From the IMG/VR virus record IMGVR_UViG_3300042451_000960: a stretch of DNA of 64,000 nt. One strand, 5' to 3'. This DNA is from a virus (taxonomy: Duplodnaviria > Caudoviricetes). The notes beneath the pieces were generated by a model that was not told the DNA's origin, did no database searches, and worked only from the letters and a program-made list of their open reading frames with translations. This document shows positions 12,001 to 64,000 of the stretch, one piece after another. Position 1 is the first letter of the stretch; the number at the start of each line of letters is the position of its first letter. A program made the translations under genes and the position numbers.

Positions 12001-13582
12001 AATATCCAGTTGCTACAACTACTGTACCAATTACGTTGAAAATATTTAATACACTACCACCATCTCTACTTGCTAATGTTAATGTACCTCGTAAAGAAGT
12101 TGTTGTGGAATCATCCCACCCATCAAACCATGCTGTTAAACTATTAGATGATAAATCAGTATTATCAATATACAATGTACTAACCGAACCAATTACTCCA
12201 TTATTATAAGCTATTACACCTGTACCAGGATCTACATCAGTTGTTGATGTTGTAAAATTATATTTTACACCAGATGCTTGTCCGCTCGAACCAGATGAAC
12301 CGCTTGAGCCACTTGAACCTGATGAACCGCTTGAGCCACTTGAACCACTGCTTCCACTGCTTCCGCTCGAGCCCGATGTACCAGCCGAACCAGTTGAGCC
12401 GGATGAACCACTACTGCCGCTTGAACCTGATGTACCTCTTGTGCCAGAAGAACCTGATGAGCCGCTTGAGCCGCTTGAACCACCACTTCCGCTTGTACCA
12501 GAACTTCCACTACTGCCGCTTGAACCGCTTGAGCCACCACTTCCGCTTGAGCCGCTTGAGCCACTACTTCCGCTTGAGCCGCTTGAGCCACTACTTCCGC
12601 TTGAGCCGGATGAGCCGGATGAACCGCTTGAGCCACTACTTCCACTTGTACCAGATGTGCCAGAGCTTCCTGACGTACCTGAGCTTCCACTTGAGCCGCT
12701 TGAGCCGGATGTACCGCTTGTACCGGAAGTACCGGATGATGCTGCAGCGTATTTAAATCCTACTTGTCCACTTGTTGTATTATAAACTAAAACATATTGA
12801 GAGTTTGTATCTACTAAAGATGAACTTTGAATGTTTAAACTACCGGATAAAATAAAACTTCCACTAATAGCAACACTACCAGTGAATTCATGCTTATCAT
12901 TTGTTGCATCACCAAACTTAGTTGAACCTGATGCAAATATTACGGATGATGTTATGAATGTTGTGTATAATTCAGTTGATGTAATTCTACCACCTACCGC
13001 TAAATTACCTAATATTGTTTCATTACCAACAATTCTACTATCTCCACCAACTACAAGGTTTTGTGAAATCCATTCAGAACCTGTTATACCCAATCCACCA
13101 CTAATTTGTGTGTTTACATTTATTTGTAATCCCTGATTTGGTGAAATTTGAGCAATTGCTGAACCTGATTTAATTTTATTAAGGTCACCGAGTGCATCAG
13201 ATGGTATATTAAACAACCCACTACCATCACCTTTGAAAAGTGATGCTGAAATTGAAGATGAAATATTAAGTGAGCCTGTTAATTGTGTATTACCAACTAT
13301 ATTAATTAAATTAGGCGATACATTTATGATATTAGAACCACTATTAATTTGTGAAATATTAGTTATTCCTTTACCATCACCAACAAAAGAACCACTAAAG
13401 GAACCTGTAATTTGAGAACCACTAATTATACTTGCTGTAATTGAATTTCTTACATTCAATGATGTATTAATTACAACCGATGAAGTTGATACTGATAATT
13501 GGTCAATACCATCTACAGTTAGTGCTATTACACTTTGACTTACTTGATTTAATCCATTTGGGTTCTTTCCTAAAAAACTCAT
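2..13582 (-). CDS. Giant modular tail-fibre/adhesin protein, >4500 aa, C-terminus outside the window (absent from ORF track)
   Basis: ATG at 13582 (MSFLGKNPNGLNQVSQSVIALTVDG...). The same frame translates at the left edge into typical fibre sequence (...RFREGSSWGGWTRAYVGY...RQLGFTDNNNLWIRG...) and at every internal point sampled. The track reports no ORF from this start, consistent with no in-frame stop in the window. It has an SGS-type N-terminus, four Gly-Ser-Ser blocks and mosaic receptor-binding-like modules. Confidence 0.9.
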   Translation of the reverse strand, partial: MSFLGKNPNGLNQVSQSVIALTVDGIDQLSVSTSSVVINTSLNVRNSITASIISGSQITGSFSGSFVGDGKGITNISQINSGSNIINVSPNLINIVGNTQLTGSLNISSSISASLFKGDGSGLFNIPSDALGDLNKIKSGSAIAQISPNQGLQINVNTQISGGLGITGSEWISQNLVVGGDSRIVGNETILGNLAVGGRITSTELYTTFITSSVIFASGSTKFGDATNDKHEFTGSVAISGSFILSGSLNIQSSSLVDTNSQYVLVYNTTSGQVGFKYAAASSGTSGTSGTSGSSGSSGSSGTSGSSGTSGTSGSSGSSGSSGSSGSSGSSGSSGSSGSSGSSGSSGSGGSSGSSGSSGSSGTSGSGGSSGSSGSSGSSGTRGTSGSSGSSGSSGSTGSAGTSGSSGSSGSSGSSGSSGSSGSSGSSGSSGSSGQASGVKYNFTTSTTDVDPGTGVIAYNNGVIGSVSTLYIDNTDLSSNSLTAWFDGWDDSTTTSLRGTLTLASRDGGSVLNIFNVIGTVVVATGYYKIPVSYVSGTLPTNGAQLIINFVRTGNSGTSGSSGSSGSSGSGGSSGSSGSSGSSGSSGSSGSSGFGSSGSSGSSGSSGSSGSSGSGGSSGSSGSSGSSGSSGSGGSSGSSGSSGLGGASGSAGTSGSSGSSGTSGSSGTRGTSGSSGSSGSSGSSGSSGTPGSGGSSGTRGTSGSSGSSGSSGQAGSSGSSGSSGSSGVSGTGGSSGSSGSSGSSGSSGSSGSSGITGAGGSSGTSGSSGSSGSSGSSGTRGTSGSSGSSGSSGVSGAGGSSGSSGSSGSSGSSGSGGSSGSSGSSGSSGSSGGTGSSGSSGSSGSSGSSGSSGSSGSSGSSGQGGGIRYNFSTSTTDADPGTGTLVYNTATISSVGFIYIDNTDLSSNSLTAWFDSWDDSTTSTNRGQIVLASRDGGSVVNIFRVTGAVVVATGYYKIPVAYVSGTLPANGAQLIVQFSRSGDSGTSGSSGSSGSSGTRGTSGSSGSSGSSGSSGSSGSSGQSGSSGSSGSSGSSGSSGSSGSSGSSGSSGSSGSSGSSGQGGGIRYNFSTTITDTDPGTGIVKYNNGVIGSVSTIFIDNTDLGGNTLTAWYDTWDDSTTSTNRGYISLISRDSGTVVNVFRVNGAVVVATGYYKIPVAYISGTLPTNGAQLTVAFARSGDSGSSGSSGSSGSSGSSGTRGTSGSSGSSGSSGSSGSSGSSGSSGSSGSSGVSGSSGSSGSSGSSGSSGSSGTSGSSGSSGSSGSSGSSGSSGALSLTGTTDNGVITLNGSAPNGTVESNLTFDGTNLRVTGNTVITGNLTVSGTTTSINTQTLSTNDNIITLTGYATGSGAPINVDSGFEVVRNASPTRRFLWNEVNSRWASDANFYASGSITTTGGVFINADEGASSTVVFGNYERLVFNNSFSDVVRGPNKITTFNDGSAWIGGIGIHSDTQAYYAGGTHKWYKSTSQTAFTEQMNLDGSGNLNVLGNLVAAQVNTGQGLTEVHLMNQNVRTTDAVTFSTINTGQGVTEVHLMNQNIRTTDNVTFNQATITNGATVNGGRRVQGVSDGAVTALGATAYSGWYRIARSGLATAGNGLRGAAKVTVTSNGGFIAPAQDVIKLYKDWTTTALIGTVENYLGGLFTQFRVTMDADYAYLEGFLTSINLGGSSSWIVYVENYGLNPNQWTAYTENLTAGLGSPVASYTLAKINNGFTTPALSVAGNITLGGTIDTGQGATEVYLMNQNVRTTDDVTFNDLTLNGGDLFLSNGTSNRIVYNTNGVAAPTFTTRSAGTKMVLYSEIGASSVDYALGIEGNTMWYSVPVAGAARFFRWYGGTTNIATLDSAGKFTLVGNTATGIANNSFNVARTTLGTIHIANGGGTSGNNNQAAITFQGDTSTQAQAGIYVSNNSSSGTAMGFATTDSYGTGPQLFLTATNAGAVNFPRAIPTAQGTSLVTNNGGQWNIRAYPRRSDGTNVDFIYSAQSGQPTYVWGTNDGTNFYVWNPSNFSVTSATNASNVASGDVTSIGLNAAWTLPGTSISNGFRVYRYSDSATNKPASVDNANWLINIYSHPTGGTASYGHQLAATDNESIYFRSVINGSFGTWRTFLHSGNFNSYAPTLTGGGASGTWSINITGTAASETLATVTGRGATTSTLVYFNGAESIRVYGIRGQFTNEYMHLYNKVGIGHPGGWGQGEGNTPNTGLSTYGAVNLSYAAATNNTVLGSWNIDGSTINSTNDATLYVTATNNNDWGVVVNKYNGSASEYGLEVRVGAGASYGYSLLGNGTRWFYVSGIGDIYNDAIYDRSDTSYRLVYEGASRISRLNLNNARTSSSQRWPVGHFDVGEAVFEMDPTWTNDQLQAYFNSSNVSWVSDSTAPGGYAISIVGAVNVGGGYNSGFPYIAIDQDDVYYMECWIRNVSGTNGHYMGSMEYNESFGSPAGGQGNPGSFGYWVMSNTNPGTSWTKVTGYIGGFGGSVGQFEVGAKYWTPQALFNYTGGGTCYISGWKIIKVSVPANRTFRNEVTVNGTLNPNGQIQIRNTSPTITFRDTDHATGFIHVNSNIFYILRGNTDVGNGSWNTVGSGWWPLEINLTNNNAQFGGTVTAFYDVVAQRFVDRDSPGYILDPASTSNLNILETRGVVVNRDANTATATAGYLSFWTGNGTTSRAQFVRTDQLYGTHGAVTNQYAQYWLMDTTNRGWIFRYATSDTAGTNVFSIRNNDGRTTIGTSFSAGAGTRAQLNVSAGTGGTTQWRDIDIQGSWSAGEEHAITATHGSALGNIVGQMVFRHDSPGSRIRWGRLYASGDQSNYPMELISNNSGTGARLEMNVGSMRAPLFEDYDNVAYFLDLNAAASAWNRSLRTLGSITFSDDYTQYKGSMSTDDNWPLCTAPARIYTIGTLNAGGGNSSKIEIEVWGSHRGYTTTSYIEYKKWIVWVGDRISSNLVMSAGSQSNVGLWNGTNANGLLGINGDHVAAGWVLRLIVNPTCGAGVAYTVKVSYANLNMTHGPFSFTTTTAASIPLAPYHVSGTTATFPNGASVNGTFNLDSATVNNLSMTGNFQIRNTEPTITFRDTNHNTAYIHVNSNIFYVLRAGNDSAHGSWSTVNGYWPLEINLTNNNATFGANVTAINDMSAERFVDRNDPTYFINPAGDSITNGAFRTGNFLGMRTSYTFIPSSWARGSGTFMIGSSQNSDGTGWAYGTRLASVDYGDGLGLSFDPLYAGPTFYNNALFISGRSGRIGRIGMGGVTAPDYALHVAGTIYSDTEVRAPIFRDADGTGYFANFADTGTSINIAGSVNAATYNKPAILVNSSGTASSGAAFAIQQVTGEGWTGIFVDYEPYTGWGLYHDNPSNYFLITSEGSTGAIGGGITVPSRSSGNRTAYVKHRFDQNNGDLLVGGDLTVYGGDINIQKSGNYSYINFAAQSNDPGYIWHYESSNTARMFFSVSDDDGTNDYFGFGFSGDNQRLIIYSSGRLDAPIMYDRSNTSFYVDPASTSNLGELQINSQLTLSTPGAANSVGNINALWGMQKPMGYKIYWDEEFRYGSNSINIYNNNGGSAVTHTRRNSSFADGHSGPPNSSGYVIEIMHAPTTSAGTSPGYGGWYFATYTGPANRRLLCIFRMKIPSGRSVEWASNSIGSGGSARWLTSNAGTGQYQDYAFMVHSGNASWSSTHFFYIVGGSSATFYTYLASATVYDCSSLSEEGAMTYYAGESMRAPIFYDQDNTTYRVDPTGNSRMGRDIYVEGNTGGSFGNRVIVGATSTPYTLQDGNQRPTVYLRGNYPVLTLDHTVTSNTNHGPTIQFAHNGLSNRQWLVGTTGDGISMDIGFSNSSLGNSDFNPHNGIAGYLGTTFMRFRENGTIGLGSNGDWGAIGGGDPSYPLEFRGTHLNSHAALFRNNTNASNGAGFIFVSTYGNHSWGIVSEFRIDGTGGDRPSILFSQGYSGTTWSVGFGYNDDNFRIKQNHGHRNGGWGTDRFTIDTGGTGYFFGELQANQFTDRENTAYLVNPAGTNSRLNSVRLDNPNYTPYQNYINSDNAPIKTWNGALVAGSDYYGANTYTVIVTNVPQDSYMMGSFTIDWFENYGSTNAKTSIQLGGYWNAESNSGFIGWEMTTSNPYIRPQVQVARQNSTGKTAIILTHYSSNYCQIVARDLFLGYSGGDESYGRGWEIRQESSLGGYSNFDTVVLRSAPARDGDGASGTWPISITGNSNYAVYASYLNAAQDSADKADISTRTNSGFWQTSAPSSGWYPGASSWQHLLSVTHSNPGNYYAMQLAASFFSQGLWYRSTNGSGGTGWQQIVTNSGTWSINVTGNAGSAGSVAGTYVANSGGGTGYINANQIFNNMGNNHGAYTDFNSIANLGVYYVQGSGNGPGTGGGQYYGMTLGLGNEYGFQYATQIAWNRTPTGGNPYISFRFREGSSWGGWTRAYVGYADSAGSAGTTDQVTVFDTRSSVQGPQTGNRRVRFDFLQNSTDGLGDGGTYHGVMTFQQWPDSSGGGTRQLGFTDNNNLWIRGSGGGLSSYGGWKLISDSGNS
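9765..12740 (-). repeat. Four (Gly-Ser/Thr-Ser)n coding blocks separated by three copies of a ~120-aa module
   Basis: GC-rich ccgcttgagcc/ccactacttcc repeats at ~9765-10040, 10405-10630, 11000-11925 and 12285-12740. The intervening modules share DPG.G, WDDST and ATGYYKIPV motifs. Confidence 0.9.
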
Positions 13583-15685: not shown

Positions 15686-18600
15686 TTAGCTCATATTTGC
15701 TGCTGATAGGAATCCCCAATAGTTACTTCCTGCATCATAAGTATAAAATACTAAAATATCTGTACCAGAAGTTGTTAATGTTGGAGCAACTCCATTAGCC
15801 CAATTTATTGATGCTGGCCATGTTATTGTATATGCTCCGCCATTTACGGATACCAATGTAAATCCAAATGCATTGGATGCTGGTGGATTACTTAATGTAA
15901 TAGTTGCATTTCCATTAAATTGTCTTCTAAAGTTATTTGCTGTTGCTAAATCTATTGTAACACTACCACCCGTTCCTAAATCCGAATATGTTTCACGATA
16001 AGTTGTTGATGTAATATTTGTTGTAGCGTTTATTCCACCAGTTACTGAAAGTGTAGTTCCATCAAATGTTAAATTAGCTTCAACTTGTCCAGCCCCAGTT
16101 GAATTTATGTAAGTTAATACACCATTATCAGTTGTTCCAGTTAATCCTAAGAATCCGCTTGAGCCACTACTTCCGCTTGTACCACTTGAGCCATCAGAAC
16201 CAACAGTACCATTAATTCCACTACTTCCGCTTGTGCCACTTGAACCAGATGAACCTGAGCTTCCAAAGAATGTACCATTAAGACCAGAAGTTCCGCTTGA
16301 GCCGCTTGTACCTGATGTTCCAGCTCCAGAAGTACCGCTTGAGCCGCTTGAGCCACTGCTTCCAAAGAATGTACCATTAAGACCAGAAGTTCCGCTTGAG
16401 CCACTTACGCCGCTTGTGCCCGATGTACCAGCTCCAGAAGTACCACTACTACCCGATGAACCAGATGAACCGAAGAATGTACCATTAAGACCGCTTGTAC
16501 CAGAAGTTCCCGATATGCCACTTGTGCCGCTTGTACCAGAACCACTTGTACCACTTGAGCCGCTTGAACCACTACTTCCAAAGAATGTTCCATTAAGACC
16601 GCTTGAGCCGGATGTACCTGCTGTGCCAGTTTGACCGCTTGTACCGCTTGTACCACTTTCTCCACTTGTACCACTTGAGCCTGATGAACCAAAGAATGTA
16701 CCATTAAGACCCGAACTACCAGAAGAACCGCTAGAGCCGCTTGTACCAGCCGAACCCGATTCTCCAGACGTACCCGATGTTCCCGAACTTCCAAAGAATG
16801 TTCCGTTAAGACCAGAACTACCAGATGTACCAGCTGAGCCCGTAGTACCTGCTGAACCAGTTAAACCGCTTGTACCACTTTCTCCGCTTGTGCCGCTTGT
16901 ACCACTACTTCCAAAGAATGTACCATTAAGACCAGATGTACCTGATGTGCCCGCTGTGCCAGAACTACCATCATCTCCTGATGTTCCATTTAATCCGCTT
17001 GAACCGCTTGTGCCGCTTGTACCACTTGAACCCGAACTTCCAAAGAATGTTCCGTTTAATCCCGAAGTACCAGAAGAACCGCTAGAACCATCTGTGCCCG
17101 TTGAACCGGATGAGCCGCTTAATCCAGAAGTTCCTGAAGAACCAAAATAAGTACCATTTAAGCCGCTTGAGCCGCTTGTACCTGATGTTCCTCCACTACC
17201 ACTTGAGCCTCCACTTCCTGTCGTACCATCCGTGCCATTTTGTCCAGATGTACCGCTTGTACCGCTACTTCCAGATGAGCCCGATGAGCCAAAGAATGTA
17301 CCATTTAAGCCGCTTGTACCAGAAGTTCCTGTTGTACCGGATGAGCCGCTCGAGCCGCTTGAACCACTTGAGCCGCTTGTACCGCTACTTCCAAAGAATG
17401 TACCATTTAAGCCGCTTGTACCAGATGTACCTGCCGTACCACTTGAGCCATCAGAACCAGTTGAGCCGCTTGTTCCATCATTACCCGATGTACCAGAACT
17501 TCCAAAAAATGTACCATTAAGACCAGATGTACCGTTTGAGCCATTTACTCCCGATGTTCCATCTGAACCAGAACTTCCTGATGAACCCGATGTACCGCTT
17601 GAGCCACTTATTCCAGACGTACCACTTGAACCCGATGAACCACTACTTCCAAAGAATGTTCCGTTCACACCGGATGTACCAGATGAGCCGGATGAGCCAT
17701 CCGTTCCGCTTGAACCCGAACTGCCAGATGTTCCTGAAGAACCAAAGAATGTACCGTTTGCACCAGACGTACCAGAAGAACCCGCTGAGCCTGTTGTACC
17801 ACCACTTCCGCTTGAGCCGCTTGAACCACTACTTCCGCTTGAGCCAGAAAAACCTGAACTGCCACTTGTACCATCAGAACCTGAGCTACCACTTGTACCT
17901 GCCGAACCCGTTGTGCCGCTTGAACCCGATGAACCACTACTACCATCTTGTCCGCTTGAGCCGGATGTACCATTACTACCACTAGTACCATCACTACCAG
18001 TTGAGCCACTTGAGCCGCTTGTACCATGCGAGCCATTTGTTCCGCTTGAACCCGATGAACCGCTACTACCATTTTGTCCGCTTGAACCCGATGAACCACC
18101 GCTACCAGATGTACCACCACTACCGCTTGAGCCGCTTGAACCCGAAGTACCTGCACTACCACTACTACCAGATGAACCCGAAGAGCCGCTTGAGCCGGAT
18201 GTACCACCGCTTCCGCTTGTGCCACCAGAACCGCTTGAGCCACTGCTTCCGCTTGTACCATCTGAACCAGTTGTGCCGCTTGAGCCACTGCTTCCGCTTG
18301 TACCACTTGAGCCATCAGAACCCGATGAGCCACTTGTACCCGATGTACCGCTTGAACCTGCTGAGCCTGTTGTGCCAGAAGAACCCGAACTACCGCTTGA
18401 GCCGCTTGTGCCAGAAGAACCCGATGTACCACCACTTCCGCTTGTGCCAGAACTGCCGCTTGAGCCGCTTGTACCAGCAGAACCTGTTGTACCACTCGAG
18501 CCACTTGAACCAGACGAACCCGAACTACCATCCGAGCCGCTTGTACCAGAAGTTCCTGAACTTCCGCTTGTGCCTGCTGAGCCTGTTGTGCCGCTTGAAC

Positions 18601-21600
18601 CGGATGTACCATCTAATCCATCACTACCAGAACTACCTGAACTACCATCTGAGCCCGATGAACCAGATGAACCGCTTGAGCCACTTATACCGCTTGAGCC
18701 GCTTGAACCACCAGTACCAGCTGTACCAGATGTGCCATCTTCTCCCGAAGTGCCAGACGTACCACCACTACCACTACTTCCGCTTGAGCCGCTTGAGCCG
18801 GATGAGCCGGATGAGCCACTACTTCCACTACTTCCGCTTGAGCCATCAGAACCCGATGAGCCTGATGTACCGCTACTTCCACTACTTCCGCTTGAGCCAT
18901 TAGAACCTGTTGTACCGCTTGAACCACTACTTCCAGAAGAACCCGAAGAGCCGCTTGAACCGGATGAGCCGGATGAGCCACTACTTCCGCTTGAGCCGGA
19001 TGAGCCGGATGAACCGCTTGAGCCTCCACTTCCACTACTTCCGCTTGAGCCACTGCTTCCGCTTGAACCACTACTTCCAGAAGAACCCGATGAACCGCTT
19101 GAACCAGATGAACCGCTTGAGCCACTACTTCCAGAAGAACCTGAAGAGCCGCTTGAACCACTACTTCCACTACTACCGCTTGAGCCACTGCTTCCGCTTG
19201 AACCGGATGAACCAGATGTGCCAGCTGAACCTGCAGACCCACTACTACCGCTTGAGCCGCTTGTACCTGCAGTACCACCAGAACCAGCAGTACCAGTAGA
19301 ACCTGATGAGCCACTACTTCCGCTTGAGCCTGATGAACCACCACTACCGCTTGAGCCACTGCTTCCGCTTGAACCGGATGAACCGCTTGTGCCGCTTGTA
19401 CCGCTTGTACCAGCAGAGCCGCTCGTACCGCTTGTACCCGATGTGCCACTTGAACCGCTTGAACCACTACTTCCAGATGAGCCCGAAGAACCAGAACTGC
19501 CGCTTGAACCAGATGAGCCCGATGAGCCGCTTGAGCCACCACTTCCACTTGAACCTGATGAACCGCTTGAGCCGCTTGAACCACTACTTCCACTACTTCC
19601 AGATGAACCCGAAGAACCACTTGAGCCGCTTGAACCACTACTACCACTACTTCCAGATGAACCCGAAGAGCCAGAGCTTCCAGATGAACCTGAAGAGCCG
19701 CTTGAACCACTACTTCCACTACTTCCGCTTGAGCCGCTTGAGCCGGATGTACCTTCCGAACCCGTTGTACCACTTGAGCCGCTTGAGCCACTACTTCCGC
19801 TTGAACCTGATGAACCTGAGCTACCACTTGAGCCGCTTGAACCACTACTTCCACTACTGCCGCTTGTGCCAGCAGAACCAGAAGAGCCGCTCGTACCGCT
19901 TGTGCCAGAAGAGCCCGAACTACCGCTTGAGCCGCTTGTACCGGATGTGCCAGATGTGCCACCACTTCCGCTTGTACCAGAACTGCCGCTTGAGCCGCTT
20001 GTACCACTACTTCCGCTTGAGCCGCTTGAGCCATCAGTTCCAGAAGAACCCGATGTACCACTTGAACCGCTTGAGCCGGATGAGCCGCTTGTGCCAGACG
20101 AACCGGATGAGCCACTTGAGCCGGATGTACCTCCTGTGCCAGCAGTTCCCGAACTACCGCTTGTACCATCTACGCCCGATGTACCCGCTGCCTGTTGTAC
20201 GTTTCTAGCTTCTAATTTTTTTGTTGTTGGATTCCATGTTACAACTAAATCGGATGCCGATGATGTATATGGAGTTCCCCAATATATACTCCCACTAACT
20301 CCTAAGCTTCCACTTATTGTTAAGTTAGCGTTTATTGTAGAATCTTTGTTTACTTGTAAGAAAGATGCCGTATTCACACCTTCCGCATTTAGAGCGTACA
20401 ATGCATATGATGCGGTAAATGCTAATGAAGCAGTACCAACAGTCATTGATGCTGTTTGTGAATTAAGAACAAAGTTTGATGTATCTACATTTGATGCATT
20501 TTGTGCAAATAATGCGTAAGATGATGTTTCTGCAAAATATGAATAAGATGATGTTACTGCAAATGATGCAGTACCAACAGTCATTGATGCAGTTTGTGAG
20601 GCCTGAACAAACAATGATGTATCAACATTTGCCGCATTTGCTGCAAATAAAGCGTAAGATGAAGAAAGTGCGTAAGATGCACTTAACACCGTCATTGATG
20701 ATGTCTGGTCATTCTTTACATAATCTGCTAAATTAAGATTTGTAATAGAAGATGATAAGAATGCTAATGAAGCCGAATCAAATCCTGCAACATTACCAGC
20801 ACTATCAGCAAATATTGCATGAGATGCGGAAAGTACAGTTCCAAATACTCTATCACCATTTATAGTACCACTAATTAGAGAACCACCACTACCAATTACA
20901 ACATGTCCAGAAGTTACTCCAGCAAATTTAATATTTATTGTATTTTTATCAATTGATTTAATTGTACCAGGTAATATTTGGTCTTCAGAACCAGTTGCGT
21001 AAACCTGAACCATTGGATACAAAATATCCAAATTATGTACAATTGTTAAATCACTTACATTACTAAATGCTACAGTTTCAGTTAATGATGATTCAGGTTG
21101 AGGTATAAAATATCCTTGAGTTGTATTATATCTTAAAATATCGTATTCTGCGGATGCGGTAGGCCCTACTCCTTGGAAATTATATGTTCCTAAGAATGAA
21201 CCTGTAAATAAATGTGCTTTTATTGTGTTGGATGCTGTAATCGTATTTCCAACATATAAGTTGCCCCAAATAGATGCCGATGTATTTACTACAAACCCTT
21301 TATCCGGCGAAATTGATGCGGTAAACGAACCACTCTTTAATAAGAATGCATCAAATGCTAAATTAGCAATTGTAATATTATTTAATCCACTACCATCACC
21401 AATGAATATAGAACCTGATTGAGCTATTACATTTCCACCACTAACAAATATACTTCCACTTACAGTTAACGAACCAGAGTGAATTCTAGTATTTGTATTA
21501 ATATCCAATAAAGTTGGAGAAATAACTGCTCTCGCAGAACCTGATTCAATTCTATCTAATTTAAGGTCTTGTAGAGCGTTTGCTGGGATATTAAATAATC

Positions 21601-58613: not shown

Positions 58614-59018
58614 TTAATTTCCATCAATTTTTACTTCACCTTCAGATGGTGCTTGTGGAGCTAATTGTTGTTTTTGCATTTCTGCAATTTGTTTTCTTGA
58701 AAGAGTTCCAGGTTGATATTGGATAGTTCCTTCCATAAGGTTCAAACGTCCTCCAGGATACCTATCATCCAAATCATCCATCATTTTTTTGAATTCATCA
58801 TTTTTTTGTTTGAATTCTTCTTCAATTCTTATAACAGTTTCATCAAGTTTTCTCGATTCTTCCATTAAATCTTTTCTTCTTAAATAAAGATTTCCAAAAT
58901 CAGTTACATAATTACCCAACATAGTGTTAAGGTTTTTAACTGAATTTAAAGTTTCTTCATCAAGTTTTACTGTTTCGATTTCAATTGTTGTTTTTGTAGG
59001 AATGTTATCTAATGACAT
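58614..59018 (-). CDS. Coiled-coil hypothetical protein (paralogue of 62813..63070)
   Basis: Long heptad helix, then LDDRYPGGRLNLMEGTI. Confidence 0.75.
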   Translation of the reverse strand: MSLDNIPTKTTIEIETVKLDEETLNSVKNLNTMLGNYVTDFGNLYLRRKDLMEESRKLDETVIRIEEEFKQKNDEFKKMMDDLDDRYPGGRLNLMEGTIQYQPGTLSRKQIAEMQKQQLAPQAPSEGEVKIDGN

Positions 59019-59052: not shown

Positions 59053-59442
59053 TTACTTTTTATTTTTTAAAATCTTAGATGTACTAAAGCCTGGTATTTT
59101 GTTGAAATATTCAATTTTTGGTACAAATTCTGCGCCTATTATTTGTTCATAACTATAATCGTTTCCAATTACCATAATATCAGGTCCCCATTCTTTTATT
59201 CTTTCGATTAATTCATCATCAGAATCAAAAGAGACCACAGAGTCAACACCATTGATAGCGGATAGAAACTCCATACGGTCAGCCAACGTATTGAACGGCC
59301 TTCCCACTCCTTTTTTTGAACGAACTCTTTCATCCGTATCAATCCCCATTCGTAAGGTGCCCAATGATGCACCATGTAACATAAGTCTGATGTGGCCAAT
59401 GTGCAAAACATCAAAAGTTCCATTTATCCAAATTTTTTTCAT
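59053..59442 (-). CDS. hldC: Heptose-1-phosphate adenylyltransferase-like (RfaE domain II / HldC family)
   Basis: GTFDVLHIGH, G.D.DE.V...KG..RP.N...R...L, PD..V.G.DY and GFSTS.I motifs. Glycerol-3-P cytidylyltransferase is the related alternative. Confidence 0.75.
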   Translation of the reverse strand: MKKIWINGTFDVLHIGHIRLMLHGASLGTLRMGIDTDERVRSKKGVGRPFNTLADRMEFLSAINGVDSVVSFDSDDELIERIKEWGPDIMVIGNDYSYEQIIGAEFVPKIEYFNKIPGFSTSKILKNKK

Positions 59443-60599
59443 TATAAGAATTTCTCTAATTCTTTAATTACCATATCAGATGTAATTAATTTAGTACATT
59501 CAAATTGTCTTTCAGTACCTTTGTGGTCTGGGCACCAATTCCAATCACCAGCATCTAAACGTATTCTATTGAAACATCCTTCACATTTCCCTTCCGGAGA
59601 ACCTATTCTAACACAATCTTTCATTTCTGCCCATTTATAAGAAAAACCACTAATTAAGACTGTAGGTACATCTAATGCCCAACTTAACCAACTTAACCCA
59701 CTACCAATTCCAATAAATGCTTTTGATTTTAATAATTCATCCATAACTAATTCAATTGGACCATCGGGGTGTTTGATAACTCCATTTGGAATTTTATTTC
59801 CCATATAATCATCACCTTCTTTGGATATAATTCTAACAACATACCCTCTTTCGTTTAACCAATCAACAACTTCTTGCCAACCTGTTGGATTATTCCAAAA
59901 CTTAGATTGTGCAGTACCAAACATACCAATACAAACTTGTTTTAAATTATAATCTTTTGTTATGTATCTTTCTTTTATTTTAGGTTTAATTTCTTCATAT
60001 TCTAATCCTAATATATCAGAACACATTTTTTGTAAAGTTGAACTTTTTGGGTCATTTGGATTTTTAAAAATGTTATGTGAATTATCTTCATTATAAAATA
60101 ACCCAACACAATACATAGCGTATAAATTTTCAACATTTGTACCCGGCTGTACGAATTCAATATGTGGATACCCATTTTCAAACATATCATTCATAAAAGT
60201 TGAAACAACAACTTTACATTTATGTTTTTTTCTGAATTCCTCTACATAAGCAAACCAAGCTAAAGAATCCCCAAGAGCTTTTGAATCTAATGCTATATAA
60301 ACTCTTTTTTCTTCTGCATTAAAATAATGTGTATGGAAATGATTATCGTTTTCATATATTTCTATACGCCAATCAATAAAATATTCTATACTACATCTAG
60401 ACCACATATTGTTTTCTATTTCAGAAGAAAATACAATTTTATCAGAATTATTATCAATAAAATTAATTTTATATTTTGCTTTTTTTGGTCCTTTTATTTC
60501 AACAAAAGGTCCTTTAACAAAATGAATTAATACTTTGTTTTTTATTTCAACAATATTATTGTGATTCTTTTTTAAATTATCGTAAATCATTAATCCCAA
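59442..60599 (-). CDS. tibC: Aah/TibC-type protein O-heptosyltransferase
   Basis: N-terminal beta domain; ALGDSLAW (catalytic Asp position); QSKFWNNPTGW..V..WL; FIGIGSGLSWL.WA; four-Cys C-x2-C...WCP...RQFEC.K.IT iron-site pattern. Confidence 0.88.
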   Translation of the reverse strand: MGLMIYDNLKKNHNNIVEIKNKVLIHFVKGPFVEIKGPKKAKYKINFIDNNSDKIVFSSEIENNMWSRCSIEYFIDWRIEIYENDNHFHTHYFNAEEKRVYIALDSKALGDSLAWFAYVEEFRKKHKCKVVVSTFMNDMFENGYPHIEFVQPGTNVENLYAMYCVGLFYNEDNSHNIFKNPNDPKSSTLQKMCSDILGLEYEEIKPKIKERYITKDYNLKQVCIGMFGTAQSKFWNNPTGWQEVVDWLNERGYVVRIISKEGDDYMGNKIPNGVIKHPDGPIELVMDELLKSKAFIGIGSGLSWLSWALDVPTVLISGFSYKWAEMKDCVRIGSPEGKCEGCFNRIRLDAGDWNWCPDHKGTERQFECTKLITSDMVIKELEKFL

Positions 60600-62770
60600 G
60601 TTTTTATAGTTTCATCCAATAAAGAATATCCTTCTGCTTGTTTGGAGTACATTTTATTAGTAGTATATCTAGGTTTTGGATGGTGATAAAATATATGATT
60701 AAACCAAAGGTCGCCCACATCCCATTCACAATCTTTTATTCTATCCATCCACCAGCTTTTGTTTCTATTTGGAATTAAATAAGCGTGTGCAAGGTCTTGA
60801 TTGTGTCCTGTTTTTGTAAACAAATCATCAATTCTATATTTTTCTCGTGATGGGTTATCTGCCAATCCTATAAAATATACATCATCTCTTTCTGAAATAA
60901 AACAGGCTTTATGAACTATGTTTACAAATTCTTCTAACCCTGTGTAAATAAATGCATCGGCTTCAAATATTAAAGTATAATCGTAATTCGTATCATCTAT
61001 TGTTTCTATAGCGTTTCTATGTGCTAAATAACAACCATAATGTCTACCAGTTATCCAACCCAAACCAGCACCAGGATATAATTCACCAGGTTTATTATCT
61101 TTACTTAAATGCTCAGGTCTTCTACAATGTTCTGCCGGCGGTAACCCTTCATAAACCTTATTAACAATTGGTTGATAATCAATTCCATATTGACGTAATT
61201 GTTTTAAAGATTGAATAGATACTCTTTCACGCATATCATCCGGTCTTGTCAACATATGTTTTATTTGAATACGTGGTTTTTTACGAACAAAAGATAAAAA
61301 ATCTTTTTGAATCTGTCCATAAAAAAAGTGATTAGCTGCATCTGTTACTCCACTAAAAACTCCAAAATCATCTCCACTAATAATTCCACCAGGTTTTACT
61401 TTATGATACCATCTATCTAACTCACCTAATACAAAATCTCTACTATGCCCACCATCAATCATTATATAATCAATAGAATTATTTTGAAATAGTTTAGAAG
61501 CATTTTCTGATGTATCTTTTATAGTATTAAACGCTTCATAATTATTTGAAATAACTGTGTTATCAACGAATTCATAAAATATATCTCCATTGAAAGACCC
61601 TACAATATCTATGTGTAATTCTTCATCTCCAGTTCCTTTAAATGTATCTATTGTTGTAAATGAAATATTCTTTTTAGAATCTCTAATTTTTTTTGCTAAA
61701 TAATTTGTAGATTTTCCAAACCAAGAACCAACCTCAACAAATGTAGAATTAAAAGGTGCAGTTTCTACCATTCTATCATATAAATTTTCATATGAAAACC
61801 AACCAGGTATTTCGTAAAATTCAGGTTTTAATTTTTGAAGTAATAATTGTTTTGTTTTTTTAGTATCATCATCAATATATGTTACTAAATTATTGTTATC
61901 ATATGTATCCAAAAAAGTATGCAATCTTCTAAATAAGCATGGGAGCTTGTAAGAAAGAGCTTCCTTTACCGATAATGGATTTAACTCTAATATTGATGAA
62001 AAATAAAACAAATCAGATGCTGCATAAAATGTATCAACATCATTTCGCTCTCCCCATATAACACAATTATCAGGTTTATGTTTCATTAGTGGCAACCAGT
62101 AATTTTCAAAGTTCATAGCTTGGTTTCCAACAAAATGAAATTTAATTTTATATTTTTCCAATTGCCTTGCTACTGAAAATATTTCTTTTTGATTTTTGCC
62201 CGGTGAAAATAATCCAACATTTAAAATATGCTTCCAAGTTGGGTCAAATCCTAATTTTTTTTGCGCTTCTTCTTTATCAAAATTATATTCTTCAATGGGA
62301 TATTCCCAAAGTTGAGTTTCAACTCCTAAATTAGCATCATCAAATTTTTGTTTACTCCACTCAGATACCAAAACATATCTATCTGGATGATGTGTAATAT
62401 CTAATGGATTTGTAAATGAACCATGTGTTGTTGCTACGATAAAATATTTTCTTTTGTTATCAAATATTTTATCTAATATTTCATTTGATAAATCAAATTG
62501 TGGGATTTCTTGAAAATGAATTATATCAGGTTTGTAGTCTTTAATTATATCAAGTATTTTAGATTTATCCTCACCTAAAGTATGTACAATAGCTAAAGAT
62601 TTAATTCTATTTTTTTGAACTACAAACGCATCACCACCACTATTGTTTATTTCAACAACTTCAATATTAAAATCATTTAAAAAATGCTTTACTTGCTTAT
62701 ATGTATATTGTGGTTGTCCGCCTGTTGAAAGGTGTGGACATACATAAAGTAACTTTTTTCTATTTTTCAT
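60590..62770 (-). CDS. Trifunctional GT4 glycosyltransferase / class I SAM methyltransferase / GT25-like protein
   Basis: PHLSTGG..., NVGLF.P.KNQ and ELNPLSVKEAL (GT-B). FVEVGSWFGKS...IDGGH...KPGG.ISGDDF (Methyltransf_24-like). GCYLAH...LIFEADA (GT25-like). Confidence 0.85.
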   Translation of the reverse strand: MKNRKKLLYVCPHLSTGGQPQYTYKQVKHFLNDFNIEVVEINNSGGDAFVVQKNRIKSLAIVHTLGEDKSKILDIIKDYKPDIIHFQEIPQFDLSNEILDKIFDNKRKYFIVATTHGSFTNPLDITHHPDRYVLVSEWSKQKFDDANLGVETQLWEYPIEEYNFDKEEAQKKLGFDPTWKHILNVGLFSPGKNQKEIFSVARQLEKYKIKFHFVGNQAMNFENYWLPLMKHKPDNCVIWGERNDVDTFYAASDLFYFSSILELNPLSVKEALSYKLPCLFRRLHTFLDTYDNNNLVTYIDDDTKKTKQLLLQKLKPEFYEIPGWFSYENLYDRMVETAPFNSTFVEVGSWFGKSTNYLAKKIRDSKKNISFTTIDTFKGTGDEELHIDIVGSFNGDIFYEFVDNTVISNNYEAFNTIKDTSENASKLFQNNSIDYIMIDGGHSRDFVLGELDRWYHKVKPGGIISGDDFGVFSGVTDAANHFFYGQIQKDFLSFVRKKPRIQIKHMLTRPDDMRERVSIQSLKQLRQYGIDYQPIVNKVYEGLPPAEHCRRPEHLSKDNKPGELYPGAGLGWITGRHYGCYLAHRNAIETIDDTNYDYTLIFEADAFIYTGLEEFVNIVHKACFISERDDVYFIGLADNPSREKYRIDDLFTKTGHNQDLAHAYLIPNRNKSWWMDRIKDCEWDVGDLWFNHIFYHHPKPRYTTNKMYSKQAEGYSLLDETIKTWD

Positions 62771-62780
62771 AACTTATTTA

Positions 62781-62812
62781 CAAATATACGATTTTTTTTT
62801 GGAATTTCCAAA
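62781..62812 (-). promoter_or_regulatory. Bacteroidota-type primary-sigma promoter for the glycosylation cassette
   Basis: Minus strand TTTG (62809..62812), 20-nt spacer, TATATTTG (62781..62788); matches the TTTG-N19-21-TAnnTTTG consensus. Confidence 0.75.
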
Positions 62813-63070
62813 TTATTTTTGAAACGTTACACTACCTTCATTCAGGTCTATTTCTCCATTTGGATATTTTTGATTCAAATCATTTAATAAAGTATCCAAT
62901 TCAACGGAAACTTGCTTATATTCAGTTTCCGCTCCCAATATGATTTTTTTAAGCTCTGATAATTCTAAATACAACTCCCCTATATTATATATAAGTTCGG
63001 TTTTTTTGGTTGAAAGGTTTTTTAAGTTAATTAGTTGATATTCTTCTAATTTTTCAGTTTGTAACTCCAT
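62813..63070 (-). CDS. Coiled-coil hypothetical protein (paralogue of 58614..59018)
   Basis: Heptad helix, then LNQKYPNGEIDLNEGSV. Confidence 0.75.
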   Translation of the reverse strand: MELQTEKLEEYQLINLKNLSTKKTELIYNIGELYLELSELKKIILGAETEYKQVSVELDTLLNDLNQKYPNGEIDLNEGSVTFQK

Positions 63071-63098: not shown

Positions 63099-64000
63099 TT
63101 ATAAAGAACCACTTATAAATGCTTCTAAACTAGAAACTTTTTGTGAAAGTTCTTGTATTGCTTTTACCATAGGTGATATAAATTCATTGTATGTAACAGA
63201 CCATCCAGCATTTTGTTGTTCTTCATCATACCATTGTTGATTGTAAAGAGTACCATCAGAACCTGTTATAGAACCACTTGCTATAATTTCTTCAATAGGT
63301 CTTTTATATTCTCTTTCTAATGATTTGATAAAAGAAGAACCCGTATTCAATCCTTTAAAATCATCAGATGTTTTTCCAAGCGATTCTAAAGCAGTTAATA
63401 CCTCTTGTGCAATAAATCCATATCTCGGTCTTTTTTTAGTACTTGATATGAAATTATATTTTACCGGTCTTAATTGTTTAATAAAATCCAAACCTAAATC
63501 GGAAGTGTAAATATTTTCTTTTAATTTTAAATCAGATAAATTATTAAAATTATCGGCATATATTTCATCCCAAAAAACTCCAGTACCCGAGTTACTACCC
63601 ATATCTTGAGTTCCATTATGTGGTCCACCAGCAGTTCCCCAGCGTGTATCGGCGGGGTGTACATCATCTATAAAATGCGCTTGATATATACTTCCGTATT
63701 TTGGTCTATACGCTAAATCCAATCTTCCATAGCCCGGACTTGCATCATTTCCAGAAATGAATATATTTCCTGCTAAATAAAGGCTTCCACGTGAATCTAT
63801 TGCATAGTTCGAAAATGCACCACCAGCGGCACCAAATGCCCAAAATTTAGATTGAGCTCCTTTTGCTTCAAAAATTATATCACTCGAACCAACTGATGTA
63901 GAAAGACGTGGAATTTGAACAAACGTTGATGTATCATTTGCTATCTGAATACCTCCAGTTGTAACTTCTACTATGTTTGTTGGTATTATAATAGTAAAAC
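63099..64000 (-). CDS. C-terminal part of a tail fibre/spike protein with peptidase-S74 intramolecular chaperone (5' end outside window)
   Basis: The frame stays open from the track's TTG at 63722 to the right edge. SDLKLKENI...LGLDFIKQLRPVKY...GFIAQEV...Y.E.I..MVKAIQEL motif. Confidence 0.88.
   Translation of the reverse strand, partial: FTIIIPTNIVEVTTGGIQIANDTSTFVQIPRLSTSVGSSDIIFEAKGAQSKFWAFGAAGGAFSNYAIDSRGSLYLAGNIFISGNDASPGYGRLDLAYRPKYGSIYQAHFIDDVHPADTRWGTAGGPHNGTQDMGSNSGTGVFWDEIYADNFNNLSDLKLKENIYTSDLGLDFIKQLRPVKYNFISSTKKRPRYGFIAQEVLTALESLGKTSDDFKGLNTGSSFIKSLEREYKRPIEEIIASGSITGSDGTLYNQQWYDEEQQNAGWSVTYNEFISPMVKAIQELSQKVSSLEAFISGSL

Follow-up and report, generated by a model that had tools for sequence, protein, structure and literature searches.

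A candidate protein O-glycosylation cassette in a jumbo phage of Bacteroidota and its possible collagen-like fibre targets

A three-gene cassette between tail-fibre and terminase genes

The window analysed here is a 64,000-nt stretch from the 136-kb record of a lake-water jumbo phage of Bacteroidota. Three tightly packed genes on its minus strand, here called the cassette, lie between the gene for a 2704-aa tail fibre and the terminase gene, all in the same orientation, and the initial annotation had rightly placed them beside morphogenesis genes. The genes are intact and conserved, and public gene calls on other contigs give identical gene models. The features of the locus are as follows.

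63099..64000, minus strand: 3' end of the tail-fibre gene (2704 aa), whose product ends in a Peptidase_S74 chaperone domain (Pfam); the gene runs beyond the window
62813..63070, minus strand: conserved ORF of 85 aa that separates the cassette from the fibre gene; annotated as a gene on public contigs
62781..62812, minus strand: promoter-like motif of the Bacteroidota type, TTTG-N20-TATATTTG, separated by 10 nt from the first cassette gene downstream of it
60590..62770, minus strand: 726-aa protein with a GT4-type glycosyltransferase, a SAM-dependent (TylF-like) methyltransferase and a GT25-like GT-A glycosyltransferase (Pfam, fold search)
59442..60590, minus strand: 382-aa homologue of the Aah/TibC-family protein O-heptosyltransferases, from a phage collagen-linked clade (TIGR04414, 4RAP, residues, tree)
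59053..59442, minus strand: 129-aa HldC-like nucleotidyltransferase (NCBIfam rfaE_dom_II as best match, below its cut-off)
58614..59018, minus strand: conserved 134-aa ORF after the cassette, kept downstream of the HldC-like gene or of a kinase gene in relatives

The cassette had been described as three overlapping genes under one promoter. The genes do overlap, but by a single nucleotide (TAATG) at both junctions when read from ATG; a 10-nt overlap arises only with an upstream TTG start for the middle gene, which would lengthen its product from 382 to 385 aa. A promoter-like motif does precede the first gene. A pattern scan of the window found nine copies of TTTG-N20-TATATTTG where 3.2 were expected; the copy before the cassette was alone in lying between genes, on the coding strand and ahead of a gene. 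A generic sigma-70 scan gave matches no more often than chance, and a terminator scan found none.

The S74 fibre gene adjoins the cassette on its upstream side and has the same gene call on public contigs. Counterparts of the 85-aa ORF occupy the same place in relatives at 27–60% identity, with no family match in Pfam and NCBIfam profile searches. The 134-aa ORF is known in phages only, its matches in the ESM Atlas being viral hypothetical clusters.

In the 726-aa protein, residues 165–285 match Glycos_transf_1 (GT4-type; PF00534, 48.7 bits, cut-off 26.4) and residues 345–469 match Methyltransf_24 (PF13578, 58.8 bits, cut-off 26.3); the homologue in G001, a complete 266-kb relative, also matches TylF sugar O-methyltransferase. 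The C-terminal 237 aa (residues 490–726) scored 16.9 bits against the GT25 family (PF01755), below the cut-off of 24. A fold search with an AlphaFold model of this part (pLDDT 78.8) returned GT25 enzymes at the top, with TM scores by query of 0.59–0.65: human COLGALT1 (E 2.7e-8) and Mimivirus R655 (E 1.3e-7), represented by PDB entries 9EVK and 9CRZ at 14–18% identity, and LgtB. The proposed GT4–methyltransferase–GT25 fusion holds with two domains above cut-off and a third that is GT25-like by fold. COLGALT1, the best structural match, glycosylates collagen, but it acts on hydroxylysine, which the Lys-free triplets of the phage cannot offer; the phage domain more likely extends an already attached sugar. 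A gene of this 726-aa type always accompanies the TibC-like gene in relatives.

The TibC-like enzyme and its likely sugar donor

Sequence places the middle enzyme in the TibC/Aah family (BAHT; TIGR04414; PDB 4RAP/4RB4). It scored 291.7 bits against TIGR04414 (cut-off 200) over profile positions 14–373 of 374, matched the TibC structure 4RAP at E 5e-53, with a match to the same N-terminal barrel, and is 35–36% identical to plasmid-borne copies. Alignment to TibC indicated that the catalytic Asp110, the residues Thr226, Lys230 and Trp305, and all four iron-finger cysteines (339, 342, 358 and 370) are kept; the initial annotation had already read the catalytic-Asp and four-Cys patterns as intact. 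In TibC, Asp110 is the catalytic base and the other three residues bind the donor, Thr226 and Lys230 through phosphate and Trp305 through heptose (PMC4358343). Among 63 phage clusters, Asp110, Lys230, Trp305, Cys342 and Cys370 are invariant, Cys339 and Cys358 are kept in 62, and position 226 is Thr or Ser.

The phage enzymes also differ from TibC. The family is marked by a dodecameric ring and by a beta-hairpin thumb with two hydrophobic residues at its tip; at this tip the middle enzyme carries Tyr-Met instead of Phe-Val. The TibC-like domain is fused to other glycan enzymes in 49 of the 63 clusters. Arg286, which in TibC contacts adenine and gives ADP specificity and whose loss cripples the enzyme (PMC4358343), is Val in the middle enzyme and Leu in G001; the position is non-Arg in 60 of the 63 phage clusters and Arg in three bacterial references. 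Nucleotide specificity may therefore differ. The family is rare among deposited phages, with only 4 of 50,697 records carrying the enzyme.

The gene for the 129-aa protein overlaps the stop codon of the transferase gene. The protein has the HxGH nucleotidyltransferase motif, and its best family was rfaE_dom_II (TIGR02199) at 90.4 bits, against 51.5 bits for glycerol-3-phosphate cytidylyltransferase. The HldC-like assignment made initially thus stands, with a score below the cut-off of 181.5; bona fide HldC of Flavobacteriales score 180–214 bits. The best match among solved structures, 5X9Q, was deposited as a putative cytidylyltransferase. Similar genes are present in cyanophages without any TibC homologue. 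On these matches, the protein is probably a heptose-1-phosphate adenylyltransferase.

Its neighbourhood in relatives points to heptose as the likely sugar, because an HldA-like kinase gene follows the HldC-like gene there. The two stand in this order, which resembles a split HldE, in G001, where the kinase gene comes directly after, in 14 related loci and in a strain variant, L470, that is 98.7% identical across the cassette. The relatives' kinases are 248–250 aa long, and that of G001 scored 104 bits as a heptose-7-phosphate kinase (rfaE_dom_I, cut-off 345) and 45 bits as a ribokinase. HldC/HldE domain II and HldA/HldE domain I are the best profile matches for the two proteins, yet both score far below the cut-offs (90 against 181.5 and 104 against 345 bits), and the phage studied here lacks the kinase.

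The remaining steps appear to lie outside the phage. We searched the 136-kb record for gmhA, heptose kinase, gmhB and hldD, a search proposed with the initial annotation, and found none; gmhA and gmhB were not found in the complete G001 genome either. The heptose pathway is therefore incomplete in the phage and the host must supply precursors, which it plausibly can, since 40 of the 101 Flavobacteriales genomes sampled encode a bona fide HldC. Of the earlier claim that the phage makes an NDP-heptose donor, the link to heptose survives through the relatives' kinase, but only the last step is encoded. Seven relatives keep the transferase without the HldC-like gene. The remark that ADP-heptose is an innate-immune agonist is irrelevant to a lake phage of Bacteroidota.

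An unlikely though still serious reading is that the fibres are glycosylated with a sugar other than heptose, the transferase taking a different nucleotide sugar as donor and the nucleotidyltransferase activating, for example, glycerol phosphate or another sugar phosphate. The loss of the adenine-contacting Arg286 would fit this, as would the sub-cut-off nucleotidyltransferase score with its glycerol-3-phosphate cytidylyltransferase match, the failure to find gmhA or gmhB, and the distribution of the donor genes: most transferase-bearing phage lineages have neither an HldC-like nor a kinase gene. Heptose is favoured by residues that the enzyme keeps, namely Trp305 as the contact to heptose, Thr226 and Lys230 as phosphate binders and the catalytic Asp, by the better match of the neighbouring kinase to heptose-7-phosphate kinase than to ribokinase, and by linkage of the transferase to an HldC-like gene in 5 and to the kinase in 6 of the 63 diverse viral clusters. 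Six bacterial genomes or MAGs with a homologue were checked, and in each of them an HldC or HldE scored at least 176 bits, in five above the family cut-off.

Collagen-like fibres as candidate acceptors

Some 36 kb of extremely Ser-rich fibre genes had been reported for this DNA. Three giant ORFs do span about 36 kb, and two are strongly Ser-rich (25% and 17%); the third, at 12.6% Ser and with no Gly-X-Y runs, makes the description an overstatement. The two rich ORFs contain collagen-like regions.

16130..20185, minus strand: proline-free collagen-like region of the 4539-aa fibre (ORF 15686–29305), proposed main acceptor (Pfam Collagen PF01391, 441 bits)
9758..12733, minus strand: proline-free collagen-like region of the 4717-aa fibre, proposed acceptor (Pfam Collagen PF01391, 200 bits)

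The region in the 4539-aa fibre has 28 Gly-X-Y runs totalling 1239 aa, with 555 Ser, 151 Thr and no Pro. That in the 4717-aa fibre, whose ORF extends from 13585 off the start of the window, has 16 runs totalling 588 aa, with 339 Ser, 29 Thr and a single Pro. Together the two fibres offer 44 runs, 1,827 aa and about 890 Ser, with one proline. These genes are not neighbours of the cassette: some 30 kb separate the two.

Collagen-like proteins with sugars on hydroxy amino acids have a precedent in BclA, a glycosylated collagen-like exosporium protein that forms surface filaments on Bacillus anthracis. Its microbial Gly-X-Thr repeat carries O-linked glycans; unlike the phage regions, however, its triplets contain proline, its sugars are rhamnose-based and its enzymes are unrelated.

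We compared the neighbours of the transferase across genomes. A Ser/Thr-rich collagen-like ORF lay within 10 kb of it in 46 of 63 independent viral clusters, and within 3 kb in 30 clusters, compared with 3 of 37 control windows (p 5e-5). Windows centred on the TibC-like gene were positive in 15 of 22 cases, those placed 50 kb away on the same contigs in 4 of 25 (p 4e-4); transferase and collagen-like genes both belong to structural modules, which inflates such co-location. Reciprocally, 10 of 11 viral contigs of at least 78 kb, chosen solely by the presence of such a collagen-like stretch, carried the enzyme. One huge phage has the enzyme and no Collagen match at all.

A tree of 147 domains split the family into two clades, each with support of 99. 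The autotransporter-linked clade is bacterial, with 27 rows beside autotransporters and one beside a collagen-like gene. The collagen-linked clade holds all phage copies, including the gene studied here, and has 50 rows beside collagen-like genes and none beside autotransporters. About half of its members lie within 5 kb of a collagen-like gene; for 45 of the 96 rows in this clade, no such gene falls inside that distance. The collagen-like neighbours in the phage clade are Ser/Thr-rich and proline-free. The same pair of enzyme and collagen-like gene occurs among housekeeping genes on a Methylococcales chromosome.

Like the classical TibC/Aah enzymes, the phage enzyme is genetically linked to a highly repetitive Ser-rich structural protein. 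It differs in being phage-encoded, in its separate and well-supported clade and in its partner, a proline-free collagen-like repeat rather than an autotransporter. The classical arrangement of enzyme and autotransporter was present on a Salmonella plasmid used for comparison. A domain search found no autotransporter in the 136-kb record or in G001, in agreement with the initial annotation, and the AIDA-type target repeat (TIGR04415) had no match in the record. TibC itself glycosylates Ser but not Thr, and a synthetic peptide rich in Ser and Gly also serves as its substrate (PMC4358343). The coupling of the phage clade to Ser/Thr-rich collagen-like genes, seen in both directions of the comparison, supports the earlier proposal that the phage's own Ser-rich fibres are the acceptors.

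Virion proteins might instead be modified on Ser-rich surfaces other than the collagen-like triplets, a reading to which we give little weight. The candidates are the N-terminal 2,700 aa of the 4539-aa fibre, a beta-rich part with 22 copies of the motif SGS-x-TAS-x-SP, small Ser/Thr-rich virion proteins, and the adjacent S74 fibre, whose gene lies directly upstream of the cassette and has almost no Gly-X-Y runs (one, of 15 aa). The classical TibC/Aah enzymes modify Ser within beta-helical repeats (PMC4358343), and 17 of the 63 viral clusters lack a collagen-like ORF within 10 kb. Against this, the Ser/Thr collagen-like repeat is the only feature that recurs beside the enzyme in distant phages and bacteria, large contigs chosen by a collagen-like stretch nearly all carry the enzyme, and the record has no AIDA-type repeat; the model of the repeat region has a pLDDT of 37.7, and its resemblance to a beta-helix is hypothetical.

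It is improbable that the target is a host surface protein or envelope glycan, for instance in a superinfection block or a change of the cell surface. In favour of such a target, many phages are known to remodel the surface glycans of their hosts with glycosyltransferases, HldC-like genes of cyanophages and pelagiphages are usually read as LPS-related, and the cassette has its own host-type promoter-like motif. Against it, the substrates of the TibC/Aah family are cytoplasmic proteins (PMC4358343), the cassette lies co-oriented between tail-fibre and terminase genes, the gene that stays with the enzyme from lineage to lineage is of the phage fibre type, and bacteria too have the two-gene unit of enzyme and collagen-like protein.

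A proposed fibre glycosylation system

We consider it somewhat probable, from the gene content and its conservation, that the cassette is a phage-encoded protein O-glycosylation system directed at the phage's own fibres, with heptose on Ser of the collagen-like regions. In the cytoplasm of the infected cell, the TibC-like enzyme would place heptose on Ser of the proline-free Gly-Ser-Ser stretches of the two giant fibres. The donor would be ADP-heptose made from host heptose phosphates, the HldC-like enzyme adding capacity at the last step and, in some strains, a phage kinase also contributing to the supply. The 726-aa enzyme, judging from its domain content alone, would then lengthen the glycan with its GT4 and GT25-like domains and O-methylate it. 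The outcome would be a glycan-coated fibre.

A literature search found no paper on such a phage fibre heptosylation cassette. A related case is that of mycobacteriophage virions, whose structural proteins are reported to receive O-linked glycans from glycosyltransferases of the phage itself (Freeman et al. 2023, PMC10527164; cited in PMC12619734). Both cases involve phage-encoded enzymes and, in the phage studied here as a proposal, the phage's own structural proteins. As described there, the mycobacteriophages use unrelated enzymes, which modify capsid and tail-tube subunits at their C-termini, and experiments demonstrated the glycans, whereas here a TibC-type enzyme and a collagen-like fibre target are proposed from genes.

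Speculatively, the sugar could stabilize a triple helix that has no proline. A bolder and doubtful extension is that heptosyl-Ser takes the place of hydroxyproline, dense, extended and methylated O-heptosylation letting proline-free Gly-Ser-Ser form a stable triple-helical fibre, with the ring-shaped enzyme moving processively along the chain before assembly, and with the same two-gene unit serving free-living bacteria such as Methylococcales. If true, the TibC-like enzymes of the phage clade would produce a glyco-collagen of a new type.

Cassette genes and enzyme families

The window is the structural region of a large phage; every gene lies on the minus strand, and genes for the terminase, portal, prohead protease and major head protein can be identified. 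The 136-kb IMG/VR record containing it is estimated to be 67% complete (CheckV), and an identical copy of the 382-aa transferase protein occurs on contigs of up to 278 kb. Among cultured phages, the terminase is closest to those of Flavobacterium phage immuto (57%) and Microcystis phage Mel-JY01 (54%); a search for near-identical DNA gave no match in the deposited phage collection. Cassette DNA occurs in many metagenome runs on lake water, dated 2020 to 2024. One metatranscriptome contained 6% of the sampled sequence words.

The cassette lies between the terminase module and a 2704-aa fibre gene whose product ends in a Peptidase_S74 chaperone domain. Gene calls, together with domain and profile matches, confirmed the three-gene arrangement described in the initial annotation, and public gene calls give the identical gene set on other contigs.

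Genes of the cassette and of the cassette-to-terminase interval in the window
60590-62770, minus strand: tri-domain enzyme, 726 aa
59442-60590, minus strand: TibC/Aah-like transferase, 382 aa from ATG
59053-59442, minus strand: HldC-like nucleotidyltransferase, 129 aa
56225-58573, minus strand: 782-aa protein between cassette and terminase, with a nucleotidyltransferase domain resembling NMN adenylyltransferase at its N-terminus and a DUF5661 domain

TAATG occurs at both cassette gene junctions, and the first cassette gene (60590-62770) is preceded, at a distance of 10 nt, by a TTTG-N20-TATATTTG motif. A generic sigma-70 promoter scan was uninformative on operon limits (29 sites versus 31.7 expected), and the generic sigma-70/terminator scan returned no terminators. 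A 134-aa ORF downstream of the cassette matched no Pfam or NCBIfam family, and its Atlas matches were all viral hypothetical clusters; an 85-aa ORF by the cassette had no family match. The 782-aa protein at 56225-58573 probably serves NAD salvage, outside the cassette; its homologues in the same place are annotated as 'cytidylyltransferase like protein' in Mel-JY01 and as 'NadR' in immuto. In G001, a complete 266-kb relative, the same interval (L105:1366-7905) holds two GIY-YIG/NUMOD homing-endonuclease genes and a 1627-aa protein with a poly(A)-polymerase/CCA-adding head plus HD and AAA_33 kinase domains, possibly an RNA-repair enzyme; all are absent from the window.

The profile search bore out the proposed Aah/TibC identity of the 382-aa transferase, which scored 291.7 bits on TIGR04414 (cut-off 200), the bacterial autotransporter heptosyltransferase (BAHT) family, and aligned with the TibC structure 4RAP (E 5e-53). 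Three IMG/VR scans with distant members yielded 237 loci, which fall into 63 clusters at 70% identity. We aligned the transferase with these 63 clusters and three bacterial members, assigning residue roles as in the published TibC structure (PMC4358343). The enzyme retains the catalytic Asp110, Thr226, Lys230, Trp305 and the four iron-finger Cys, and these residues are invariant or near-invariant over the viral clusters (position 226 holds Thr or Ser, and 62 of 63 clusters keep Cys339 and Cys358). Because catalytic, donor-binding and iron-finger residues are kept, the transferase looks active. Its nucleotide contact is unlike that of the studied BAHT members: at the position of Arg286, which contacts adenine in TibC (PMC4358343), the window protein has Val, and 60 of the 63 phage clusters have a residue other than Arg. 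The stereoselectivity position is Gly, compared with Pro300 in TibC and Ser in Aah, and the thumb tip is Tyr-Met where TibC has Phe-Val. The phage enzyme is a BAHT member by profile but misses two functional hallmarks of the family, the autotransporter partner and the adenine-contacting Arg.

The 726-aa protein carries a GT4-type domain and a Methyltransf_24 domain, and its C-terminal domain had only a sub-threshold Pfam match to GT25. An AlphaFold model of that domain (pLDDT 78.8) best matched the GT25 enzymes COLGALT1 (the human collagen galactosyltransferase), Mimivirus R655 and LgtB. The reading put forward earlier, a GT4-methyltransferase-GT25 fusion, therefore holds with the last domain as GT25-like, given the Pfam domains and the GT25-like fold of the predicted C-terminal structure.

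Two other readings of the cassette were rejected. A prophage-borne virulence cassette does not fit the lack of an autotransporter, the lake-water source or the T4-like structural module setting. DNA modification by the glycosyltransferase was dismissed as well, since the family modifies proteins and the gene sits within a fibre/head module.

Donor supply

The best family for the 129-aa protein was HldC (rfaE domain II), at 90 bits versus 51 bits for glycerol-3-P cytidylyltransferase, and its best solved relative was 5X9Q. The RfaE-II assignment of the initial annotation thus kept its family, but at half of the cut-off. Taken alone, the profile match is weak evidence for HldC; the HldC-like reading is strengthened by gene context, because relatives carry kinase and transferase neighbours. 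In G001, the fibre gene is followed by a small ORF, then the tri-domain enzyme, the transferase and the HldC-like gene, and last a 248-aa PfkB kinase whose best family is heptose-7-phosphate kinase (104 bits versus 45 bits for ribokinase), and the HldC-like gene is followed by the kinase in 14 related loci.

The cassette's gene content and its conservation, like the residue conservation in the transferase, were observed directly. All relatives with enough sequence have the tri-domain enzyme and the transferase; in these same relatives the HldC-like gene is absent from 7, alone in about 7 and accompanied by the kinase in about 14. Of the 63 diverse viral clusters, 5 have an HldC-like gene next to the transferase and 6 have a kinase there. 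Comparable HldC-like genes are found in cyanophages that have no TibC homologue.

A near-identical strain, L470, shares 98.7% DNA identity with the window from the fibre gene into the HldC-like gene (64000-59068). Similarity breaks at about codon 45 of the HldC-like gene (window 59068-59310 versus L470:11149-12946), beyond which L470 has a different HldC-like 3' part, then a PfkB kinase of 250 aa and downstream sequence with only 67% identity. The break is a recombination breakpoint within the HldC-like gene, at which near-identical phages exchange their donor-supply module. An HldC-like gene without a kinase and with an internal recombination breakpoint is particular to this window.

Searches for gmhA, the kinase (hldA), gmhB and hldD found none in the 136-kb record, and neither gmhA nor gmhB was found in the complete G001. 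On this gene content, heptose precursors would have to be host-derived. The earlier proposal that the phage makes its own heptose donor accordingly stands for the HldC-like last step but not for gmhA, the kinase, gmhB and hldD, which are absent from the 136-kb record. Host supply is plausible, since a bona fide HldC is encoded in 40 of 101 sampled Flavobacteriales genomes.

Collagen-like fibres as candidate acceptors

We found no autotransporter domain or AIDA-type repeat in the 136-kb record or in G001. Three giant ORFs follow the head genes in the window (3058, 4539 and more than 4528 aa, the last being 4717 aa in full), and the Ser-rich stretches of giant ORFs consist of collagen-type Gly-X-Y repeats (Pfam Collagen, 441 and 200 bits). 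No Gly-X-Y runs were found in the 3058-aa ORF.

Gly-X-Y content of the two collagen-rich fibre proteins
4539-aa fibre protein, Gly-Ser-Ser stretches encoded within window 16130-20185: 28 runs, 1239 residues; Ser 555, Thr 151, Pro 0
4717-aa fibre protein: 16 runs, 588 residues; Ser 339, Thr 29, Pro 1

TibC modifies Ser and not Thr, and accepts a free Ser/Gly-rich peptide (PMC4358343). The collagen-rich fibre genes lie about 30 kb away from the cassette, a distance particular to this window; the cassette-adjacent fibre has one 15-aa Gly-X-Y run in the window phage and 63 aa of runs in G001. The beta-rich N-terminal 3,040 aa of the 4539-aa fibre (window 20186-29305, minus strand) contain 22 irregularly spaced copies of the motif SGS-[VA]-TAS-[VI]-SP; a single-sequence AlphaFold model of this fibre's beta-rich repeat region was unusable (pLDDT 37.7).

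The giant ORFs (window 1-39490) sit between neck/head-completion genes and a pair of 782- and 162-aa ORFs (G000:104726-107616 of the 136-kb record) found downstream, at the expected place of the sheath and tube genes. Since this is roughly the position of the T4 whisker (fibritin) gene, the giant ORFs may encode fibres of the collar or neck and not distal tail fibres. Beyond the window, downstream of the tail/baseplate region, short overlapping ORFs form a run at G000:118201-125926.

To survey the pairing of enzyme and repeat, we compared neighbourhoods across the transferase family, for which clustering at 50% gives 1,523 representatives. Most of the nearest ones are fusions of 600-2000 aa, a separate, unfused transferase being particular to this window, and the first three representatives examined adjoin giant fibre genes on phage-like contigs. 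In 46 of the 63 viral clusters, the transferase has a Ser/Thr-rich collagen-like ORF no more than 10 kb away (on its strand in 37 of these 46); such an ORF is within 3 kb in 30 clusters and within 1 kb in 16. For pseudo-genes placed in control windows, a neighbour within 3 kb was found in 3 of 37, against the 30 of 63 (p 5e-5). On the same contigs, 15 of 22 TibC-centred windows were collagen-positive versus 4 of 25 at 50 kb distance (p 4e-4).

A quick FastTree tree of 147 family domains, rooted arbitrarily at the midpoint, separated two clades with support of 99 each. The first holds 51 bacterial rows, 27 beside AIDA-like autotransporters and 1 beside a collagen-like gene. The second holds 96 rows, comprising every viral cluster, the window gene and some environmental bacteria; 50 are beside collagen-like ORFs and 0 beside an autotransporter. 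About half of the phage-clade rows lack a collagen-like neighbour at up to 5 kb, which is partly due to short loci.

The sole autotransporter-clade member with a collagen-like neighbour is from Bordetella sputigena (L456:9839-12411), where the transferase gene has a convergent neighbour encoding a 425-aa protein that joins a Ser/Thr Gly-X-Y run to a fucose-binding lectin domain of the PA-IIL type. In Mel-JY01 (L002:1-8430, PP395634.1), a 1226-aa 'methyltransferase FkbM' is a GT4 to TibC-like fusion adjoined by a collagen-like gene; Collagen-repeat matches fall on the plus strand at positions 29-2170, where two minus-strand hypothetical genes are annotated, and the fibre gene was probably mis-called and split by the record's linear start.

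On a 2.67-Mb Methylococcales contig (L402:10058-12125), a TibC-like enzyme and a 293-aa Collagen-repeat protein form a two-gene unit surrounded by the housekeeping genes lgt, thyA, ppa and phoA (alkaline phosphatase). This pair is not in a phage, so the pairing is not a mere by-product of phage structural modules. A counter-example is the 636-kb uncultured phage LR756504.1 (L096), whose TibC-like gene (34% identity) adjoins a sigma-factor-like gene and a methyltransferase; no Collagen-repeat match was found genome-wide.

The initial annotation had held that relatives with the same Ser-rich fibres but routinely without the cassette would speak against its reading. Of 42 viral contigs picked only for a window-like collagen stretch, 21 carried the enzyme, as did 10 of the 11 that are at least 78 kb long; the enzyme is present in only 4 of 50,697 deposited phage records. 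The evidence joining enzyme and repeat is an association in sequence data.

Proposed role and significance

We consider it moderately likely that the cassette glycosylates Ser of the phage's own collagen-like fibres, probably with heptose, followed by sugar extension and methylation. Following this logic, the transferase would O-glycosylate Ser of unassembled collagen-like chains in the cytoplasm, using a sugar that is probably heptose from ADP-heptose, with the phage reinforcing the final one or two steps in making the donor. We infer heptose as the sugar and the collagen-like fibres as the acceptor from enzyme family and gene neighbourhood. The tri-domain enzyme, judged by its domains alone, would then add two further sugars and a methyl group. 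More speculatively, the glycan might shield the fibre or stabilize its proline-free helix. The initial interpretation is supported in part: the enzyme families hold up and the idea of Ser-rich fibres as acceptor gains support, but the full donor pathway does not hold.

To our knowledge, the sole described role of the TibC/Aah family is the virulence-linked modification of autotransporters in proteobacteria. Our results put the window gene in a second, larger branch, mostly of big aquatic phages with some bacteria, that seems tied to another substrate class, proline-free Ser/Thr collagen-like fibres; the phage enzyme would act in a BAHT-like manner on this new class, in a virus. A full-text literature search found no paper joining heptosyltransferases, collagen-like repeats and phages. 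Glycosylation of mycobacteriophage virions is known, but its enzymes and targets are unrelated to those considered here (Freeman et al. 2023).

If confirmed, these findings would extend phage virion glycosylation past mycobacteriophages to widespread lake phages and offer a biochemical explanation for giant Gly-Ser-Ser fibres. The automatic label 'autotransporter O-heptosyltransferase' on thousands of metagenomic proteins would then be misleading, and the cassette would provide a simple enzyme-substrate pair for densely glycosylated collagen-like materials. Gain and loss of the heptose kinase and adenylyltransferase among strains also illustrates how phages adjust their reliance on host sugar-nucleotide pools.
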